Shown one piece after another: positions 1,176 through 61,348 of a stretch of 64,000 nt of DNA. The notes beneath the pieces were generated by a model that worked only from the letters and a program-made list of their open reading frames with translations, was not told the DNA's origin and searched no databases. Origin of the DNA: a virus (Duplodnaviria; Caudoviricetes); IMG/VR virus record IMGVR_UViG_3300037484_000235, positions 32,001-96,000 of that record. One strand, 5' to 3'. The position numbers and the translations under genes were made by a program. Positions within the stretch are counted from its first letter, which is position 1, and each line of letters starts with the position of its first letter.

Positions 1176-1278
1176 GTCGGATAGCGGTGACGGACCAATA
1201 TAGGACTATGACGGAGAACGCCAGAATCACCCCGGCAATCCAATCGAGGCCATTGTATCTATCGAACCAGTCTATCAC
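1156..1278 (-). CDS. 40-aa single-TM membrane peptide (not in ORF track)
   Basis: hand translation MIDWFDRYNGLDWIAGVILAFSVIVLYWSVTAIRQSCKSP; GTG start overlaps upstream TGA. Confidence 0.55.
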   Translation of the reverse strand: MIDWFDRYNGLDWIAGVILAFSVIVLYWSVTAIRQSCKSP

Positions 1279-12321: not shown

Positions 12322-12855
12322 ATGACTGACGCCGATGACCGATCCACAAATGACGACCTGACTGATGACTACGACCCCAACGACTTAGGGGATCTCCAGT
12401 GTGGTATGATTTCATCCACAAGATCAGCGGTGTGTATTCTGAATCCTGGACATGGGGGTATGCACCGTGTCTTTTCCGTTACAACCCACAGTTTTGGACC
12501 CAGGAAGCCTATCCCATTTCCGGATCTGGAAAACATTAACCCAGGAATCCGAGAGACAGTCAGGCTCCTAAATCAGAATGGCTTCCGGACTACAGATAGT
12601 GGTGACGGAAAGACAGGTGACTATTCGTGTGACCGTCCCTACCCATACGTGTCGATTGCTTCAACCCGTGCGGGGTTGATCCAGGATGCAGACGACATCG
12701 CCTTTCTGTTCTCTGAGCACGGTGTTCAAGTCGGAGAACTCACCGAAGAGGGTGAAGGCCCCTACATCCAGGCGATGTACACCCCTCAGGTAAAAAACTG
12801 CGCAATCATCGACATTCAGAATGTCGATGACAAGCTGTTGGGGCTCGTACCCTAA
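12322..12855 (+). CDS. hypothetical protein
   Basis: 177 aa; GF.T.DSGDG motif. Confidence 0.65.
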   Translation: MTDADDRSTNDDLTDDYDPNDLGDLQCGMISSTRSAVCILNPGHGGMHRVFSVTTHSFGPRKPIPFPDLENINPGIRETVRLLNQNGFRTTDSGDGKTGDYSCDRPYPYVSIASTRAGLIQDADDIAFLFSEHGVQVGELTEEGEGPYIQAMYTPQVKNCAIIDIQNVDDKLLGLVP

Positions 12856-14459
12856 CCCTTGGTGACGTGCCCATCGTAGAAGTGGAAGAAGACCGGGACC
12901 CTCTCGATCCCCAGCTCCGCCGCAATGGCCAGTCGATGATTCCCTTCACCAACCTTGACTCCGCCTTTACGACCGATTTGGAGGTGCACGGTGCTCCCCT
13001 TCTTCCATCCTCGGCTGTTCATACTGTCCATCAGCTCGTCCCATTCATGTGGTTCCAGACGAGCCTTGTCCCGAGTCCAAACGTACTCCCTGTAGGGTAG
13101 TAGCTCAGACAGACGGACCATCACGGGCATGTCGTCCTCGTACATCTTGTCCCCGAGCTTTTGCCAGTTCGCAATCACGTCTCCCAGGCCCGTGTAGTTG
13201 GAGTAGTACCCAGCGGTACGACCACCATGTGTAACAGTGCCCAACGCCGCCCGCACGGCGTCCTGCAAACGGTCTGGTTGGAAGGCGAGCATTGGTGTGC
13301 TCAGCATCGCCTCGCGAGCTAGAGGGGCCAGTGCGCCCCGGTCTCGGCCCTGTAGGTTGAACTCTGTGATGAGGGCCGTGTTGTCGATCGGTGGCTTCTT
13401 GAGCTTCTCGAAGAACTCGTCAGCCTCATCGCTGATCATCCCCGTGGTGATTTCCCGGAGTCTGACTTGTTGAGGCTTCGTCAGGAAAGCTACGGGCTGC
13501 GACCCAAGCCCAAGGTCTGCCAGATCCAGAAGCAACGCCACCGCACGGTTCCCGTTGCTGAACTGCTTTGCCATGTACGAGGCAAACGGAGCCTCACTTT
13601 GGATCATTTCCGAGAGGGTCTCGATCAGGCCCAGGTGAGCCATTGTGAGAAGGGCCCCACGTGCATTAGGGGTGTCCAGAATGTCTTGCACCAAGATCGT
13701 GGCAATCGCCTCCCATGGCATCTTCTTCATCTTGGGGGCGTTACGCCGGACACTGGCCGCAACCTCATCGGTCAGATCAAGCTCGTACTTGATCGAGAAT
13801 TTAATCAGTCTGAGCATACGTGTTGGATCGTCGGAGAATGTTCGGTCCGGATCCAACGGTGTGTGGAGCATTCGCTCTTCGAGGTGCTGCACGCCAAGAC
13901 CCGTAAGGTCGATGACTTCTGCGTAGTCAGGTCCGTTTGCTAGGTCGAGCAGTCTCCAGAGCAGAGAATTGAGCGTGAAGTCGCGTCGATTTATATCCTC
14001 TTCGATGGTGGCTGGTTGGACATCGGTGGGCTTGTAGCCTTTTCCTTTCCCTTCGGCTCCACCGTAGGACTCTTTGCGCGCATTCGCGATTTCCAGAATT
14101 TCACCCTTCAGCGAGTGGCCCTCAAGTTCCCATTCTCCCTTAATTGTCAGTATGACAACCCCATACTGATTGGTTGTGAGATTCGTTGGGGCTGGGATAG
14201 CCTTGGCCAGTTGATTTGCAAACCACTCTGAGTTCTTGCCGAGCGCGATGGAATCTACGACGACGTCCAAATCATTGATTGGGTACTTGGATCCACCAGG
14301 GTCCATCATGAAGTTACGCACGGCCCCACCAACCACGTAAACGTGACTAGCCACACCCAATTCGATTGCTGTGCGAGACAAGAACTTCATCAGCGCCACT
14401 GAGCGTGCATGCGACCCAGCGTTGAGAAAGCGAGTTGCGACTTGAGATGCTTGATCCAT
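12852..14459 (-). CDS. cca: class II tRNA nucleotidyltransferase/poly(A) polymerase (CCA-adding type) fused to C-terminal ParB/sulfiredoxin-like domain
   Basis: VVGGAVR, DLDVVV, RKESY, EDINRRDFTLNSL, FSDDPTRMLR; C-term GEGNHRL..A..LG...VPV; no HD domain seen. Confidence 0.88.
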   Translation of the reverse strand: MDQASQVATRFLNAGSHARSVALMKFLSRTAIELGVASHVYVVGGAVRNFMMDPGGSKYPINDLDVVVDSIALGKNSEWFANQLAKAIPAPTNLTTNQYGVVILTIKGEWELEGHSLKGEILEIANARKESYGGAEGKGKGYKPTDVQPATIEEDINRRDFTLNSLLWRLLDLANGPDYAEVIDLTGLGVQHLEERMLHTPLDPDRTFSDDPTRMLRLIKFSIKYELDLTDEVAASVRRNAPKMKKMPWEAIATILVQDILDTPNARGALLTMAHLGLIETLSEMIQSEAPFASYMAKQFSNGNRAVALLLDLADLGLGSQPVAFLTKPQQVRLREITTGMISDEADEFFEKLKKPPIDNTALITEFNLQGRDRGALAPLAREAMLSTPMLAFQPDRLQDAVRAALGTVTHGGRTAGYYSNYTGLGDVIANWQKLGDKMYEDDMPVMVRLSELLPYREYVWTRDKARLEPHEWDELMDSMNSRGWKKGSTVHLQIGRKGGVKVGEGNHRLAIAAELGIERVPVFFHFYDGHVTKG

Positions 14460-14495
14460 GAGGGCTCCACCCAATGCAGAAAATAGACGGCTTCG

Positions 14496-28317: not shown

Positions 28318-28413
28318 TGGCGCTACATCACACACGCGGTGAGCCATGATCCCAAGGGTCGCCCTTGCTGGCCCTGGGTAGCGCCGTTCCTAGCGGTTCG
28401 TGTGCGGTGTAGC
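28318..28413 (-). ncRNA. candidate CCA-ended structured RNA (acceptor-like helix)
   Basis: GCUACA/UGUAGC + C.A + CGCACACG/CGUGUGUG, then G-CCA; internal hairpins; directly downstream of a promoter. Confidence 0.5.
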
Positions 28414-28428
28414 GTCTCTCACCTAGGT

Positions 28429-28458
28429 AACGGTTGAGCCCACCAGGATTACACGATT
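28429..28458 (-). promoter_or_regulatory. repeated promoter AATCGTGTAA-N16-CGTT (no ATG follows)
   Basis: motif read directly. Confidence 0.85.
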
Positions 28459-56589: not shown

Positions 56590-57420
56590 TCAGATGGCAA
56601 TTGGGAAGGAAATCGCCGGATGGGGGTCATACCCCACGAGCTTGGAATCGTCGTGCTTCCATAGAAAGATGGAGTTCGACGGCGCTACTGTCTCCAATGT
56701 CGGGAGCTGAAGCGATTCCCTAGAGAGCTGTTCTACAGCCCCCTCCATCTGATTGACGTAGATATGGGTGTCAGCCAGGAAGCCAATGAGCTTCCCCTCT
56801 AAAAGGCCACAGTGTCTCGCGATGAGGTGCAGCAAAAGAGCATACGACGCGATGTTGAACGGTAGGCCAAGCATGGTGTCGACAGATCGCTGAGACCACA
56901 GCAGGTCCAGTTTTCCATTGTTCACCAGAAGCTGGAACGCGAAGTGACATGGTGGTAGGGCCATTGCCGGTATGTCCGTTGGATTCCATGCAGAACAGAT
57001 GAGCCTGCGGTTCTTCGGATCGTCCTGGCAAAGGCGCAGGATGTTTGCAAGCTGGTCAATCCCGTTGAAGCTGCGCCACTGTGCACCATAAATGGGGCCC
57101 AGGTCTGGTTCGTTGCGCATCGCAAGGAAGGACTCCGAAGAGTGACCGTAAGGCACTTTGGCGGGGGAGCACCACTCGTCCCAGATGGTACACTTGCGCT
57201 CCTGATACCATCTCTTGTCTGTGACCCCGTTGATGAAACCCTCAAGCTCAACTTTTACGGATCGGAACGGGACCCTCTTCGTAGTCAACAGGGGGAATCC
57301 GTTCCCCATGTCGTGCTCAAAGAGAACCCCAGACAGCGAGCGGGTGTCAACCCCCGTGCGGTTGGGTTTTAGTTGCCCCTCACGGATGATGCGCCGCACT
57401 ATGGTCTGATAGGAATGCAT
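56590..57420 (-). CDS. thyA: thymidylate synthase
   Basis: FPLLTTK, LGPIYGAQWR, MALPPCH, QRSVD..LGLPFNIASY, DTHIY.N. Confidence 0.95.
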   Translation of the reverse strand: MHSYQTIVRRIIREGQLKPNRTGVDTRSLSGVLFEHDMGNGFPLLTTKRVPFRSVKVELEGFINGVTDKRWYQERKCTIWDEWCSPAKVPYGHSSESFLAMRNEPDLGPIYGAQWRSFNGIDQLANILRLCQDDPKNRRLICSAWNPTDIPAMALPPCHFAFQLLVNNGKLDLLWSQRSVDTMLGLPFNIASYALLLHLIARHCGLLEGKLIGFLADTHIYVNQMEGAVEQLSRESLQLPTLETVAPSNSIFLWKHDDSKLVGYDPHPAISFPIAI

Positions 57421-57439: not shown

Positions 57440-57943
57440 TTATAACTTCAAACCCATCGCACGCATCTTGAGGAGTGCCTCAGCATTCCCCCGGGCATCA
57501 TCCAGAGGGTCATGCGTGTGCTTGGTTCCTCGAAGGTGCTTAAAGTTCTGACGGGTGTCATTCACCATCCCCTTGTAGAGGGATCCAAGATTTGTTGAGC
57601 TGAAACCAAATGGGCAGTGCCCCAAGAAGTGGTGAAAGTACCAGCAGACAAATTGCCAGTCAAATCCATTGTTGTCCGAGATGAACATCGGTCGGGGGAT
57701 TGTGGAGAGCCACTGGGAGAATGCCTCCATCCCATCTGTGGCAAATGGGAACTCAAGCGTCTCTTCCCTGGAATGTCCGCTGATGGCTAGTGCCTCGGGA
57801 ATCCACCTTTCGGAGATTGGTCGGAACCGAGCGGCAAAGGTCCGGTTGAGACCAGGCTCCACTACGATGGCCCCAAGGGAAATCATAGAGAAGTCCCCGG
57901 GGATCGGCCCATCGGTTTCCACGTCCACCATAACGTACGTCAT
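57440..57943 (-). CDS. DEDDh 3'-5' exonuclease (RNase T / RNase AS-like)
   Basis: VDVETDGP, DN.GFDW, H.PLDDA. Confidence 0.85.
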   Translation of the reverse strand: MTYVMVDVETDGPIPGDFSMISLGAIVVEPGLNRTFAARFRPISERWIPEALAISGHSREETLEFPFATDGMEAFSQWLSTIPRPMFISDNNGFDWQFVCWYFHHFLGHCPFGFSSTNLGSLYKGMVNDTRQNFKHLRGTKHTHDPLDDARGNAEALLKMRAMGLKL

Positions 57944-58134
57944 GGTGCCACCCACAGGTCGTGTGCCATTGCGTTAGCCCCACAGCGGGAACAGCTTGCA
58001 CTGTCCGAAAGGTCAGTCGATTGGGTAGGTCCATCCCAGACGTGCTCGCATGTACCCTCCGGGCACTTGCACTGGCAAGTTCTTGAAGATGGCCCACAGA
58101 AGAACAATGAAATGGCAGACTCAGTGGTGTTCAC
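57940..58134 (-). CDS. small Cys-rich protein
   Basis: probable GTG start; CEH.WDGP..CSRCG..AM.HD. Confidence 0.55.
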   Translation of the reverse strand: MNTTESAISLFFCGPSSRTCQCKCPEGTCEHVWDGPTQSTDLSDSASCSRCGANAMAHDLWVAP

Positions 58135-58388
58135 TTGCGGCCTTTTTTCTCTGTGATGATAGTGATTGGAACCACCGTCTCGCACTCGATCTCACGGATG
58201 ATCCGACCAAGAGCCCGTCGAAGTTCCTTGGCATCCTCAACAGAGATGTGGGCGACCCCAGTTTTCTCATTGGATGAAGCCAGAATCTTGACCAACCCCT
58301 TACCATTTCCTGAATGGCCGATTTCCGCAATACCCTCTTGCCAGGCAGATACTATCCTCACAGACCACCTCCGCGCTCGGTCCTTCAC
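58131..58388 (-). CDS. hypothetical protein
   Basis: 85 aa coupled. Confidence 0.5.
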   Translation of the reverse strand: MKDRARRWSVRIVSAWQEGIAEIGHSGNGKGLVKILASSNEKTGVAHISVEDAKELRRALGRIIREIECETVVPITIITEKKGRK

Positions 58389-59005
58389 TTGGACCCACCT
58401 GTCAGGGAGTCACCTGTGTGGAACAACGGCCAGCGAGATTCCCACCCGTAGTGATTGGACACCACCCGGTAGGCGTCCTTGAAGAGGATCACAAGCTCAG
58501 AGATTCTCGTGTCCATCTGAGGGCCCTCTGCGGCCAAGACGACTTCAAGCGCTGCATCTGAGTAGCCACGGATGGCCTTGAGACCCCATTTTGGTGGAGC
58601 GAGGAACAGGTCGAGGACATTTGATGTCTTGTCGGCGATCTTGATCGCCTGACCCTCGATGCCCATGCTTCGCATCTTGCCGAGCTGGAAGATGTGCTTC
58701 GCTTCCCGGTCTTTCTTGACGTCATCCGGAAGTGTGAGGTCGTGGACCAGCCCCGCTACGTGGACACCGAACTTGGTGTTGATCTGTTCGATTGTGACTC
58801 TGGTGTCCTCTACTGTGTCGTGTAGAAGAGCGGCAATCAATGTGCTCGGGTCATTGAATCCAGCCTGGGAGACCCGACTGGATACATCGAAGCAGTGATT
58901 GACGTATGGGGTCCGAATCTCCCCACCACGGACCTGATCGAGGTGTGCGTTTGTTGCGAACTTCACAGCTTCCATGAGCTGTGGTACTAGGATTTCTGGT
59001 TTCAT
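58385..59005 (-). CDS. HD-domain small alarmone hydrolase (Mesh1/SpoT-hydrolase-like)
   Basis: FA..AH..Q.R, PYVNH, AALLHDTVEDT, IKIADK.SN. Confidence 0.88.
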   Translation of the reverse strand: MKPEILVPQLMEAVKFATNAHLDQVRGGEIRTPYVNHCFDVSSRVSQAGFNDPSTLIAALLHDTVEDTRVTIEQINTKFGVHVAGLVHDLTLPDDVKKDREAKHIFQLGKMRSMGIEGQAIKIADKTSNVLDLFLAPPKWGLKAIRGYSDAALEVVLAAEGPQMDTRISELVILFKDAYRVVSNHYGWESRWPLFHTGDSLTGGSK

Positions 59006-59863: not shown

Positions 59864-60056
59864 TGGCGAGGAAGCGGACTGCAACCCGCGACACGCGACG
59901 GGTCTCACGAGCGTTGGCCTTCTTGGCATCCGACTTACGCCCCCGCACACAGCAAGAGCAGTTGAGCCCACCGGGTCCGTGCACCGAGTGTGTGTGGCAG
60001 ACACGACGAACACTACTACGGAGAGGGAGATACATTTGCAGTCCTTTCAGTTCCAC
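59850..60056 (-). CDS. hypothetical basic protein
   Basis: CHTH..GG..C.CC. Confidence 0.45.
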   Translation of the reverse strand: MELKGLQMYLPLRSSVRRVCHTHSVHGPGGLNCSCCVRGRKSDAKKANARETRRVSRVAVRFLANEEG

Positions 60057-60337
60057 TCCAGAAGGATCCAGATTCCTCCCTGACGAAGGTCTACGACTCG
60101 CGAGAAGTAGTACAGGTTACCCGATCGAATGACCCAGTCGTGCCCGAAGTCTTCGAGGAACGCTGTATGAAGGTGGATCGGCATGAAGGGGAGAGTGGGG
60201 GACTTGCTTTCATCCGTAAAGAACTGGAGCGTCCAGACTCGGTTTGGGCGTCCGGGAAGAGTCGGCCCACCAGCGAAGGGCACATGTCCTCGCGCAGTTT
60301 CACTCTTGGGCATCCAGACCAGTTCTTGACGGGGCAT
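60047..60337 (-). CDS. hypothetical protein
   Basis: AGAGG RBS immediately after tRNA-like RNA. Confidence 0.6.
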   Translation of the reverse strand: MPRQELVWMPKSETARGHVPFAGGPTLPGRPNRVWTLQFFTDESKSPTLPFMPIHLHTAFLEDFGHDWVIRSGNLYYFSRVVDLRQGGIWILLEWN

Positions 60338-60350
60338 GACGTGTTCCTCT

Positions 60351-60439
60351 TGGTGCCGGGTCAGGGAATTGAACCCTCAGATTTTAACCTGCCCCCAACC
60401 CTTGCGGGCCACCGCCTGGTGCTTCGAGGGGGTACCGAC
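60351..60439 (-). ncRNA. tRNA-like RNA with T-arm, acceptor 3' strand and ACCA but non-canonical 5' half
   Basis: GAGGG-UUCAAUU-CCCUG-ACCCGGC-A-CCA has exact tRNA 49-76 spacing; 5' GUCGG pairs with CCGGC; no 7-nt anticodon loop. Confidence 0.6.
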
Positions 60440-60461
60440 GTTGTGCTCTCTACACCCTAGT

Positions 60462-60491
60462 AACGGCAGGTAGGAGGATCATTACACGGTT
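60462..60491 (-). promoter_or_regulatory. promoter AACCGTGTAA-N16-CGTT driving tRNA-like RNA
   Basis: motif read directly; divergent pair. Confidence 0.8.
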
Positions 60492-60514: not shown

Positions 60515-60544
60515 AATCGTGTAAAGAACCTTCCACCATACGTT
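60515..60544 (+). promoter_or_regulatory. repeated promoter AATCGTGTAA-N16-CGTT
   Basis: motif read directly. Confidence 0.85.
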
Positions 60545-60562
60545 ACACAGGCGAGGATGCAC

Positions 60563-61348
60563 ATGACCACCAATGCAAAGTCGGTTCTGGTAGCGGGATG
60601 CCTGGCGGAGATGGTTGAGGACGCTGGGGGTTCCCCTCGCTTCATCAGCTTCGCAACCCGCCTTTCGGGGGAAGTCCGTGGCTCGGGGGCCAACCGGATG
60701 CGTCGTGGAGATCACGTCATGGAATACACGCTCCTGACGGGATTTAGCTACATGAACATGGTCCGGAGGTCCGCACGCATGTTGCAAGAAGCCCTGCTCA
60801 GCCCATACTTTGTGGGCGAGGTGGTTGCCCTTCTGGCAGAGACCGTCGATGAACAGACCGGAGAGCCCATCAACGACACCGACGTACTGGACGCCATCTT
60901 TGGTACTGAACGGGGGCGCAAGGGTTTGCTTACGGCCTACAGTGAAACCCTGGCTGAGTCCAACACCTCCAGCAACGACCACGTTTACGAGCCCCTCATG
61001 GTGGATGGGGAGGAAGTCTCTGGGTGCAAGGTCTACACGGGCGAGGGTGACCCCACGGACCCGAAGGCGCCGGTTCCGGGCACCATGTACCTGAAGGGTG
61101 TCGAGATCTCCAGCCGGTGCGTCGAGAAGAGCCCCAATGGGGACAAGATCCTGAGCAAGCGGGGCGCCGTGGCCCTCGCCAAGGACTTCATCGAAGCCCG
61201 TCTCGCTCTTCCTGCAAGCACCTACCGCACGTTCCGCCTGTTGCCTGGAGAGGCCCTGAGCCTCAAGTGCGGTGGGGTCTCTCTCCACGCCGCAGAGGGT
61301 GAAGAGGCGCAGCCGGGGGCTGCTCGGATCGGGACGTTGATCGCCTGA
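60563..61348 (+). CDS. hypothetical protein
   Basis: 261 aa after promoter and RBS. Confidence 0.75.
   Translation: MTTNAKSVLVAGCLAEMVEDAGGSPRFISFATRLSGEVRGSGANRMRRGDHVMEYTLLTGFSYMNMVRRSARMLQEALLSPYFVGEVVALLAETVDEQTGEPINDTDVLDAIFGTERGRKGLLTAYSETLAESNTSSNDHVYEPLMVDGEEVSGCKVYTGEGDPTDPKAPVPGTMYLKGVEISSRCVEKSPNGDKILSKRGAVALAKDFIEARLALPASTYRTFRLLPGEALSLKCGGVSLHAAEGEEAQPGAARIGTLIA

Follow-up and report, generated by a model that had tools for sequence, protein, structure and literature searches.

A tRNA-shaped RNA gene without D or anticodon arm in uncultured huge phages

Locus and architecture of the RNA

The present analysis concerns an 89-nucleotide (nt) RNA, shaped like a transfer RNA (tRNA), that is encoded on the minus strand at positions 60351-60439 of a 64,000-nt stretch of phage DNA. 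This stretch, hereafter the window, comprises bases 32001-96000 of the IMG/VR record IMGVR_UViG_3300037484_000235, and positions refer to it unless given as genome positions. Because the record measures 252.5 kilobases (kb) at a completeness that CheckV estimates at 57%, its source is considered a huge phage. Compensatory changes in the stems of the RNA, a promoter ahead of it and its independence of genomic context together show a functional, self-contained RNA gene. On this comparative evidence, the RNA is a gene in its own right, not just a leader, and is a member of a small huge-phage family absent from the databases searched. Its parts are listed below.

60351-60439, minus strand: tRNA-shaped RNA, 89 nt
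60435-60439, minus strand: 5' acceptor strand GUCGG, followed by the invariant U6 and A7 at 60433-60434
60392-60432, minus strand: arm P2, with a basal stem of 5-6 base pairs (bp), a bulge and a 27-nt core
60428-60432 paired with 60392-60396, minus strand: basal stem of P2
60424-60427, minus strand: purine-rich 4-nt bulge of P2
60397-60423, minus strand: conserved 27-nt core of P2
60378-60391, minus strand: hairpin P3, 4 bp with a 6-nt loop (NUNNNA), in the position of an anticodon arm
60363-60377, minus strand: T arm, 4 bp with the loop UUCAAUU, the invariant G at 60362 coming next
60351-60359, minus strand: 3' acceptor strand CCGGC, discriminator A and encoded CCA

Read on the minus strand, the sequence is GUCGG UA CCCCC UCGA AGCACCAGGCGGUGGCCCGCAAGGGUU GGGGG CAGG-UUAAAA-UCUG AGGG-UUCAAUU-CCCU G AC CCGGC A CCA, followed on its 3' side by the Shine-Dalgarno sequence AGAGGAA and then by the ATG at 60337. 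The minimum-free-energy fold is a four-way junction composed of an acceptor-like stem (RNA positions 1-5 with 81-85), P2 (8-48), P3 (49-62) and the T arm (63-77). The 3' strand keeps the canonical tRNA count, namely 5 nt of T stem, 7 nt of acceptor and the discriminator, without insertions or deletions in all nine alleles described below, and three consecutive non-Watson-Crick layers occupy the centre of the acceptor/T stack. The folding energy is no better than that of shuffled sequences (z = -0.58, with 52 of 200 shuffles as stable; not significant), and thermodynamics alone therefore provides no proof of the fold. For the core, RNAalifold favours two 4-bp hairpins with AGGY and GCAA loops (CACC-AGGY-GGUG and GCCC-GCAA-GGGU) within the CCCCC/GGGGG stem, and single-sequence folding favours one long interrupted hairpin, 0.6 kcal/mol separating the two folds.

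An earlier sequence-only reading had described the same minus-strand sequence as a tRNA-like RNA in which T arm and acceptor keep tRNA spacing and the D and anticodon arms are missing. The sequence is identical to that description and the architecture is borne out; the two hairpins proposed for the core were recovered independently by RNAalifold. Other details required adjustment. The T stem, described as four of five pairs, does contain four Watson-Crick pairs, but the supposed fifth is a conserved G.G whose 5' G closes the preceding hairpin. The hairpin given as AGGU-UAAA-AUCU exists, but is better drawn as a 4-bp stem with a 6-nt loop, as its inner U-A is found only in the window allele. 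The 5-bp acceptor holds in the window, but only four of its pairs are invariant among alleles (G1-C, U2.G, C3-G and G4-C), the fifth being paired (G-C or U-A) in part of the alleles and mismatched (C.A or C.C) in the rest.

The record carries a phage-specific, promoter-like bipartite motif, AATCGTGTAAT-N14-16-CGTTACnnAGGTG, followed directly by AGGAA and an ATG; leaders are almost absent. Strict copies of the motif (CGTGTAA-N13-18-GTYAY) number 22 in the 252-kb record, compared with 0.75 in shuffles. They lie mostly within 13-92 kb and on both strands, examples in the window being those at 60453-60488 (minus), 60518 (plus), 28455 (minus), 26933 (minus) and 53316 (plus). One copy heads the tRNA array of the phage, where it leaves a leader similar in length. 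The elements at the RNA are the following.

60481-60488, minus strand: upstream promoter element CGTGTAAT, a copy of the motif at genome 92488
60453-60465, minus strand: downstream promoter element CGTTAC TAGGGTG (consensus CGTTACnnAGGTG, AGGAA..ATG)
60440-60452, minus strand: 13-nt spacer or 5' leader UAGAGAGCACAAC, in the window lineage only
genome 92518, plus strand: divergent promoter copy pointing to a 263-amino-acid (aa) open reading frame (ORF)

The order in the window is thus promoter, 13-nt spacer, RNA, AGAGGAA and ATG, and other units have nothing at the place of the RNA. The spacer measures 16 nt in the homologous alleles L002, X4 and X5 and is absent from L008 and L010-L013. The latter carry a sister consensus, ATCGTGTAAAAG...TCGYTTCATGGGTG, whose last G (GGGTG) is G1 of the RNA, and this coincidence places the 5' end no more than a few bases from the presumed transcription start. 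In L008, GTTCGCTTCATGGGTG stands before either AGGAAG...ATG or the RNA. A sigma-70-type promoter and an intrinsic terminator were sought at the RNA element, and neither was found. The -10 box of the sequence-only reading is accordingly not of the sigma-70 type and belongs to the phage's own bipartite consensus, whereas the placement of the RNA behind a promoter and, in the window phage, directly before a ribosome-binding site was correct.

A second structured RNA lies at 28318-28413 on the minus strand, between the promoter copy at 28455 and a Shine-Dalgarno sequence with its ATG. It consists of a long hairpin, GCGCUACACCGCACACG...CGUGUGUGAUGUAGCGC, followed by CA, and is unrelated in sequence to the RNA at 60351-60439; covariance model R1 gives no match to it.

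The protein-coding genes considered here are given below.

60047-60350, minus strand: 96-aa ORF with Shine-Dalgarno sequence AGAGGAA (60344-60350) and ATG at 60337, function unassigned
60518-61348, plus strand: divergent promoter copy and 263-aa ORF (ATG at 60557), bounding the RNA gene on its other side
58385-59005, minus strand: RelA/SpoT-type HD_4 hydrolase, in the gene run headed by the RNA
57440-57955, minus strand: Rv2179c-like 3'-5' exoribonuclease, below the Pfam cut-off, in the same run
56590-57420, minus strand: thymidylate synthase (ThyA), in the same run
12852-14474, minus strand: enzyme with a PolyA_pol head domain (CCA-adding type)

The 96-aa ORF is the first gene of a leftward run that includes the HD_4 hydrolase, the exoribonuclease and ThyA, and no integrase domain was detected among the neighbouring ORFs tested. 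The RNA is present in a single copy in the record, with no second half-site. The tRNA array is 10 kb away and is encoded on the other strand. That array, outside the window, comprises 46 tRNAs called by ARAGORN at genome 102.3-116.9 kb, and a regular transfer-messenger RNA (tmRNA) of the phage is found at genome 168034-168418. All amino acids but Ser are represented in the tRNA island. At least 10 further GGTTCRANYCC T-arm sites there have no ARAGORN call, and sub-threshold matches to the tRNA family RF00005 at genome 112994-113075 (27 bits) and 113211-113297 (14 bits) may correspond to atypical genes resembling tRNA-Ser. The island also contains a 578-aa open frame (L058) with a TROVE (Ro60/Rsr-like) domain at genome 114472-114627, which scores 23 bits, at the Pfam cut-off.

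Alleles, compensatory change and exchange

Nine distinct alleles, 75-99% identical, were identified in related, uncultured phages of freshwater, wetland, sediment and wastewater samples. Searching with the core pattern retrieved L008, a 60-kb viral contig, and L009-L013, five metagenome contigs, and three more alleles emerged when Logan contigs from eight public DNA runs were compared with the region: the X1-type allele, present in three runs (X1, X6 and X9) from three studies, and X4 and X5, each seen once. Contig L002 carries the sole relative found of the 96-aa ORF, 84% identical, with the same RNA in the same upstream place. A pattern combining a GNRA hairpin with the T loop, together with three looser patterns, matched many loci, all but L008 of which were rejected by the covariance model, its weak matches among them being ordinary tRNAs. 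Comparison by blastn with 50,697 phage records of the GenBank phage collection gave no match, searches with the neighbouring proteins in viral contigs gave no relatives, and a search for the exact 3'-end pattern returned nothing. The core pattern is likewise absent from 185,579 prokaryote genomes, which thus yielded no copy in a host or prophage. Within the reach of these searches, the family is rare and confined to uncultured phages of the sample types named above.

Compensatory change is found in three stems, each of which occurs in four fully paired versions. The P2 basal stem reads CCCCC/GGGGG, CUCGCC/GGCGAG, CCCUCC/GGAGGG or CUCCCC/GGGGAG; P3 reads CAGG/UCUG, CAGG/CCUG, CGGG/UCCG or CGGG/CCCG; and the T stem reads AGGG/CCCU, GAGG/CCUC, UGGG/CCCA or GUGG/CCAC. 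In the covariance-model alignment used for pair counts (six of the nine alleles and the truncated L009), paired cells amount to 97.4%, with change on both sides in six pairs. The covariation score of 0.216 compares with 0.102 +/- 0.018 in shuffles, none of 500 reaching 0.216, and with 0.015-0.09 when partners were slid by 1-3 columns. RNAalifold obtained the same helices from a plain MAFFT alignment. The sequence-only reading had named a lack of compensatory change, or a match to a known Rfam family, as grounds for giving it up; covariation in the stems and the absence of a matching Rfam family (see below) both favour it. An antisense ORF at 59990-60460 (plus strand) was considered as a coding explanation and rejected, given that indels of 1-3 nt fall inside it among homologues and that the changes follow base pairing. 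Inspection by eye for a K-turn, for covariation linking the loop of P3 to the bulge, and for pairing of leader with trailer gave nothing consistent.

Beyond these stems, U6-A7 never varies, nor does the G that follows the T stem. Every allele has a UUCRANY T loop, and eight of nine have A as discriminator, the exception being L008 with G. The core, AGCACCAGGYGGUGGCCCGCAAGGGUU, has one variable position (C/U26). The terminal ACCA emphasized in the sequence-only reading is not a family trait, as CCA is encoded only in the window, X4 and X1-type alleles. The others end in CCG (L002, X5), CUA (L008, L010, L011) or CUC (L012), so that discriminator and tail there read ACCG, ACUA, GCUA or ACUC. Given that many alleles encode no CCA, such an end would need to be added after trimming.

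The surroundings of the RNA differ among lineages. On the sister contigs L008 and L010-L013, the upstream gene encodes a different protein of 210-228 aa and no ribosome-binding site is directly adjacent 3' of the RNA, and none of the ORFs near the RNA in L008 and L010-L012 has a detectable relative in the window phage. Despite these unrelated nearby proteins, the RNA in L008 and L010-L012 remains 77-86% identical. The label of transcribed leader given in the sequence-only reading consequently suits the window lineage but not L008 and L010-L013, where the RNA starts at the last G of the promoter amid other neighbours.

The X1-type allele provides a second view of this independence. Within the RNA, it differs from the window by 15 substitutions and 3 inserted letters, whereas its downstream flank shows 3 differences over 87 nt and its upstream flank none listed over about 157 nt; its identity is 86% to the L010 and L011 alleles versus 80% to the window. 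This pattern looks like a swapped cassette and suggests either recombinational replacement of the allele or fast compensatory evolution of the RNA. Lying diverged between near-identical flanks and closer to L010 and L011, the RNA thus behaves as an exchangeable module. L009:346-447 is an X1-type copy that has one mismatch in P2 and is cut short by a deletion of about 175 nt, which extends from the T loop as far as the 3' part of the 96-aa ORF.

Comparison with known RNA families

ARAGORN makes no tRNA call at the RNA in the window, at an 80% threshold or at any homologue locus, and with lowered thresholds and introns allowed it returns only junk calls on other frames. RF00005 yields 50 matches on the whole phage at E <= 10 (41 tRNAs above threshold), the RNA locus not being among them, and no match in a 401-nt search (gathering threshold, 29 bits). 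No Rfam family reaches its gathering score. At E <= 10, the window, L010 and L011 give noise-level matches only (cow-rumen-1, L31 leader, tRNA-Sec and the mascRNA T arm; 13-16 bits). The sequence-only reading had anticipated no tRNA call or a pseudo call, and ARAGORN and Rfam indeed make none.

Likeness to canonical and phage tRNAs (RF00005, including class II and tRNA-Sec shapes) extends to the four-way junction, the T arm with G53-C61 and UUCRANY, the 5+7-nt 3' strand, the A discriminator and the promoter type, which is common to the tRNA array of the phage. A canonical T loop and an end-closed acceptor are present, as shown by UUCRANY, a G-C closing pair, a covarying 4-bp stem and four invariant pairs. 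A D arm with G18-G19 and an anticodon arm of 5 bp and 7 nt are not: P2 (41-44 nt) with its core takes the place of the D arm and loop, a hairpin of 4 bp and 6 nt without a conserved triplet that of the anticodon arm, three acceptor/T layers are mismatched and there is no variable region. The P3 loops read UUAAAA, UUCAAA, GUAGAA, AUCAAA, GUCAAA and GUAACA, constant only in the U at position 2 and the A at position 6. No register gives one anticodon for all alleles, and the constant U is preceded by U, G or A. Since the middle letters of the 6-nt loop vary in every register, P3 is considered non-decoding. Local alignment with the 46 tRNAs of the phage reveals only generic T-arm similarity, closest to the 3' end of tRNA-Val(AAC). 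A likeness of P3 in the window to the anticodon arm of tRNA-Leu(UAA) was considered as an origin and dropped, because other alleles do not share it. Against tRNA-Sec (RF01852), the RNA scores 13.2-13.4 bits (E about 4; gathering score, 47), and UCA occurs in the 6-nt P3 loop of only some alleles.

Like the tRNA-like domain of tmRNA, the RNA is a phage-encoded mimic that has an acceptor stem and a T arm, lacks an anticodon and does not decode. It differs in lacking G3.U70 and a tag reading frame: the pair 3-70 is C-G in all alleles, the length is 89 nt compared with more than 300, and ARAGORN calls no tmRNA in the window. YrlA-type Y RNAs (RF02553), which partner with Ro60/Rsr, offer another case of tRNA mimicry in a non-coding RNA, and this phage has a TROVE-domain ORF. 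YrlA is circularly permuted, with its ends in the Ro-binding stem and a closed acceptor. In contrast, the ends of the RNA are acceptor ends forming an unpermuted acceptor stem, no Ro-binding stem is seen, the TROVE ORF lies 22 kb away and Rfam gives no match.

The mascRNA and MEN-beta RNAs, associated with MALAT1 and NEAT1, are eukaryotic, are located 3'-terminally in a long non-coding RNA and retain a D arm. The phage RNA differs in its position at the 5' end of an operon, in having no D arm and in being unrelated in sequence beyond a 15-nt T-arm match (RF01684; 13.4 bits, E = 3.5; gathering score, 42.5). Both are non-decoding cloverleaves with a degenerate anticodon loop, embedded in a longer transcript, and mascRNA offers the closest analogy for the inferred processing. 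In the mascRNA case, tRNA-processing enzymes cut the tRNA-like RNA from a longer transcript and thereby define the end of its neighbour (PMC8457004). By analogy, the RNA appears most like the non-decoding tRNA mimics, resembling mascRNA in its presumed processing and the tRNA-like domain of tmRNA, or YrlA, in its mimicry.

Candidate functions

The reading to which we lean, tentatively and with somewhat less than even confidence, is that the RNA is a non-decoding tRNA mimic that acts in trans after maturation by the enzymes that process tRNA ends. What RNase P and the CCA-adding enzyme measure is the stack of T stem-loop and acceptor stem, not its sequence (PMC4919913), and because the acceptor/T half of the RNA keeps this stack, the tRNA pathway would be its likeliest route of maturation. 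Transcription would start at or a few nt before G1, and in the window lineage RNase P would remove the 13-nt leader. The 3' end would be produced by endonucleolytic or exonucleolytic trimming to the discriminator and subsequent CCA addition, for which the phage's own CCA-type nucleotidyltransferase would be available; in the window phage, the 3' cut would also separate the RNA from the downstream mRNA. The presence of the PolyA_pol-head enzyme and the 3'-5' exoribonuclease supports such a processing capacity. Once released, the RNA would read no codons and would act in trans as a tRNA look-alike, its acceptor/T half serving as a ligand for tRNA-handling factors and the 27-nt core of P2, at the D-loop position near the elbow, as a specific contact for a candidate protein or RNA partner. 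Antisense targets of the core were also sought, and two complementary 13-mers are present at other places in the genome (a total of three 13-mers compared with 0.6 expected), which is not significant; one further antisense match is merely the T arm of another tRNA.

Several observations weigh against this trans-acting mimic. The acceptor/T stack has three mismatched layers and its acceptor only four invariant pairs, so that its recognition by RNase P, RNase Z or the CCA enzyme can be called no more than plausible, and the partner of the RNA is putative. The invariance of the core is partly an artefact, since homologues were found by the core pattern and by 31-mers; L002, the sole allele found independently of the core, has 1 change in 27 core letters versus 9 in 62 elsewhere, which is suggestive only. 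L009 is without the 3' third of the RNA, so that the RNA may be dispensable or the contig defective or misassembled. No terminator follows the RNA in any lineage, no RNA run is listed among the public runs searched for the sequence, and the RNA is always the 5' part of a longer transcript, a position that a role in cis fits equally.

Such a cis role, which we consider possible though rather unlikely, would make the RNA a promoter-proximal leader that acts on its own transcript alone and whose released piece has no function. It would be either a tRNA-like cleavage signal setting the 5' end and stability of the downstream mRNA or, in the manner of the HK022 put RNAs, an element that modifies the polymerase transcribing it. 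Its position is consistent with this: in every lineage the RNA follows the last conserved base of the promoter by 0-16 nt with no terminator behind, in the window it stands exactly between promoter and Shine-Dalgarno sequence, where other copies hold nothing, and the unrelated structured leader at 28318-28413 occupies the same position behind another promoter copy. However, a pure cleavage signal would need neither a near-invariant 27-nt core nor a conserved P3 and an invariant acceptor sequence, and the downstream genes differ between lineages while the allele is exchangeable independently of its flanks. Moreover, a canonical T loop and tRNA strand lengths are not known to play a role in polymerase-binding leaders such as put RNA.

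Less probable still is that the RNA, after CCA addition, serves as an acceptor-end decoy for toxins that act on tRNA 3' ends, or as an aminoacylated carrier that donates its amino acid off the ribosome. For the decoy, toxSAS/CapRel-type pyrophosphokinases, MenT/AbiEii nucleotidyltransferases and HEPN RNases would be candidate toxins, an assignment equally unlikely. The HD_4 hydrolase and 3'-5' exoribonuclease of the same leftward run, the CCA-type nucleotidyltransferase in the window, and the four invariant acceptor pairs, including the U2.G71 wobble, with discriminator A in 8 of 9 alleles, as identity elements would be, are in line with this proposal. The gene linkage, however, is confined to the window lineage and close relatives, the neighbours in L010 being different, and the lack of G3.U70 excludes tmRNA-like alanine charging. 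Recognition of the LeuRS type requires a D-loop core, which is absent from the RNA; moreover, the conserved core would be left unexplained, and the toxin or synthetase involved is a candidate only.

A wider scheme, which we regard as improbable, would make the RNA part of a phage system for the protection of tRNA 3' ends, expressed early from its own promoter as a CCA-tailed bait for host abortive-infection toxins. It is comparably improbable that the baited toxins would be those that pyrophosphorylate, extend or clip tRNA acceptor ends. Just as speculative is the corollary that genuine tRNAs would be mended by the co-transcribed HD hydrolase and 3'-5' exoribonuclease together with the phage CCA-adding enzyme, the P2 core offering a phage protein a handle on the decoy.

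A functionless relic, either a decayed tRNA gene or an attP-type tRNA 3'-half remnant, is very improbable: the T arm and 3' acceptor strand do resemble ordinary tRNAs, closest to the 3' end of tRNA-Val(AAC), with no call by a tRNA detector, but neutral decay cannot account for three stems that each occur in four complementary versions and have 97% of cells paired, the 5' acceptor strand has been kept, and the RNA has its own consensus promoter, is a single copy without a second half-site and is kept across differing flanking genes. Scarcely credible, too, is an aberrant decoding tRNA, such as a tRNA-Leu or stop-codon suppressor whose D arm is expanded and whose anticodon loop has 6 nt: P2 and P3 would stack about 9-10 layers, like D stem plus anticodon stem, the loop has U at 2 and A at 6 with UAA, UAG or UCA as letters 2-4, the weak matches of the family's covariance model are to class II tRNA-Leu genes, and tRNA-Sec gives 13 bits, but the loop has 6 rather than 7 nt, no anticodon is common to the alleles, the would-be U33 varies among U, G and A, the Rfam scores lie at noise level (13 bits at E about 4, for a gathering score of 47) and there is no D loop.

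The large tRNA sets of huge phages are usually explained by codon supply or by replacement of tRNAs cleaved by the host. A conserved, promoter-driven RNA that retains only the half of a tRNA recognised by enzymes would indicate that huge phages also invest in mimicry that is useless for decoding. The family could be used to ask which tRNA-handling machinery phages target, whether tRNA-like modules punctuate phage operons, and whether bacterial RNase P, RNase Z and CCA enzymes can mature a loosened acceptor/T stack. At about 90 nt, the RNA is a compact object for such work; its nine natural alleles already include compensatory mutants, and its strongly conserved 27-nt core is a candidate binding site. 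The analysis also provides a new covariance model for the annotation of phage metagenomes and defines a consensus for a phage promoter.

An unrelated tRNA-like RNA of about 80 nt was observed at L007:~1190-1275 (plus strand) of IMGVR_UViG_3300001533_001671. It combines the acceptor GGGGUCG/CGACUCC, which includes G3.U70, with a GNRA hairpin and a T arm, and resembles a mini alanine-type tRNA mimic.

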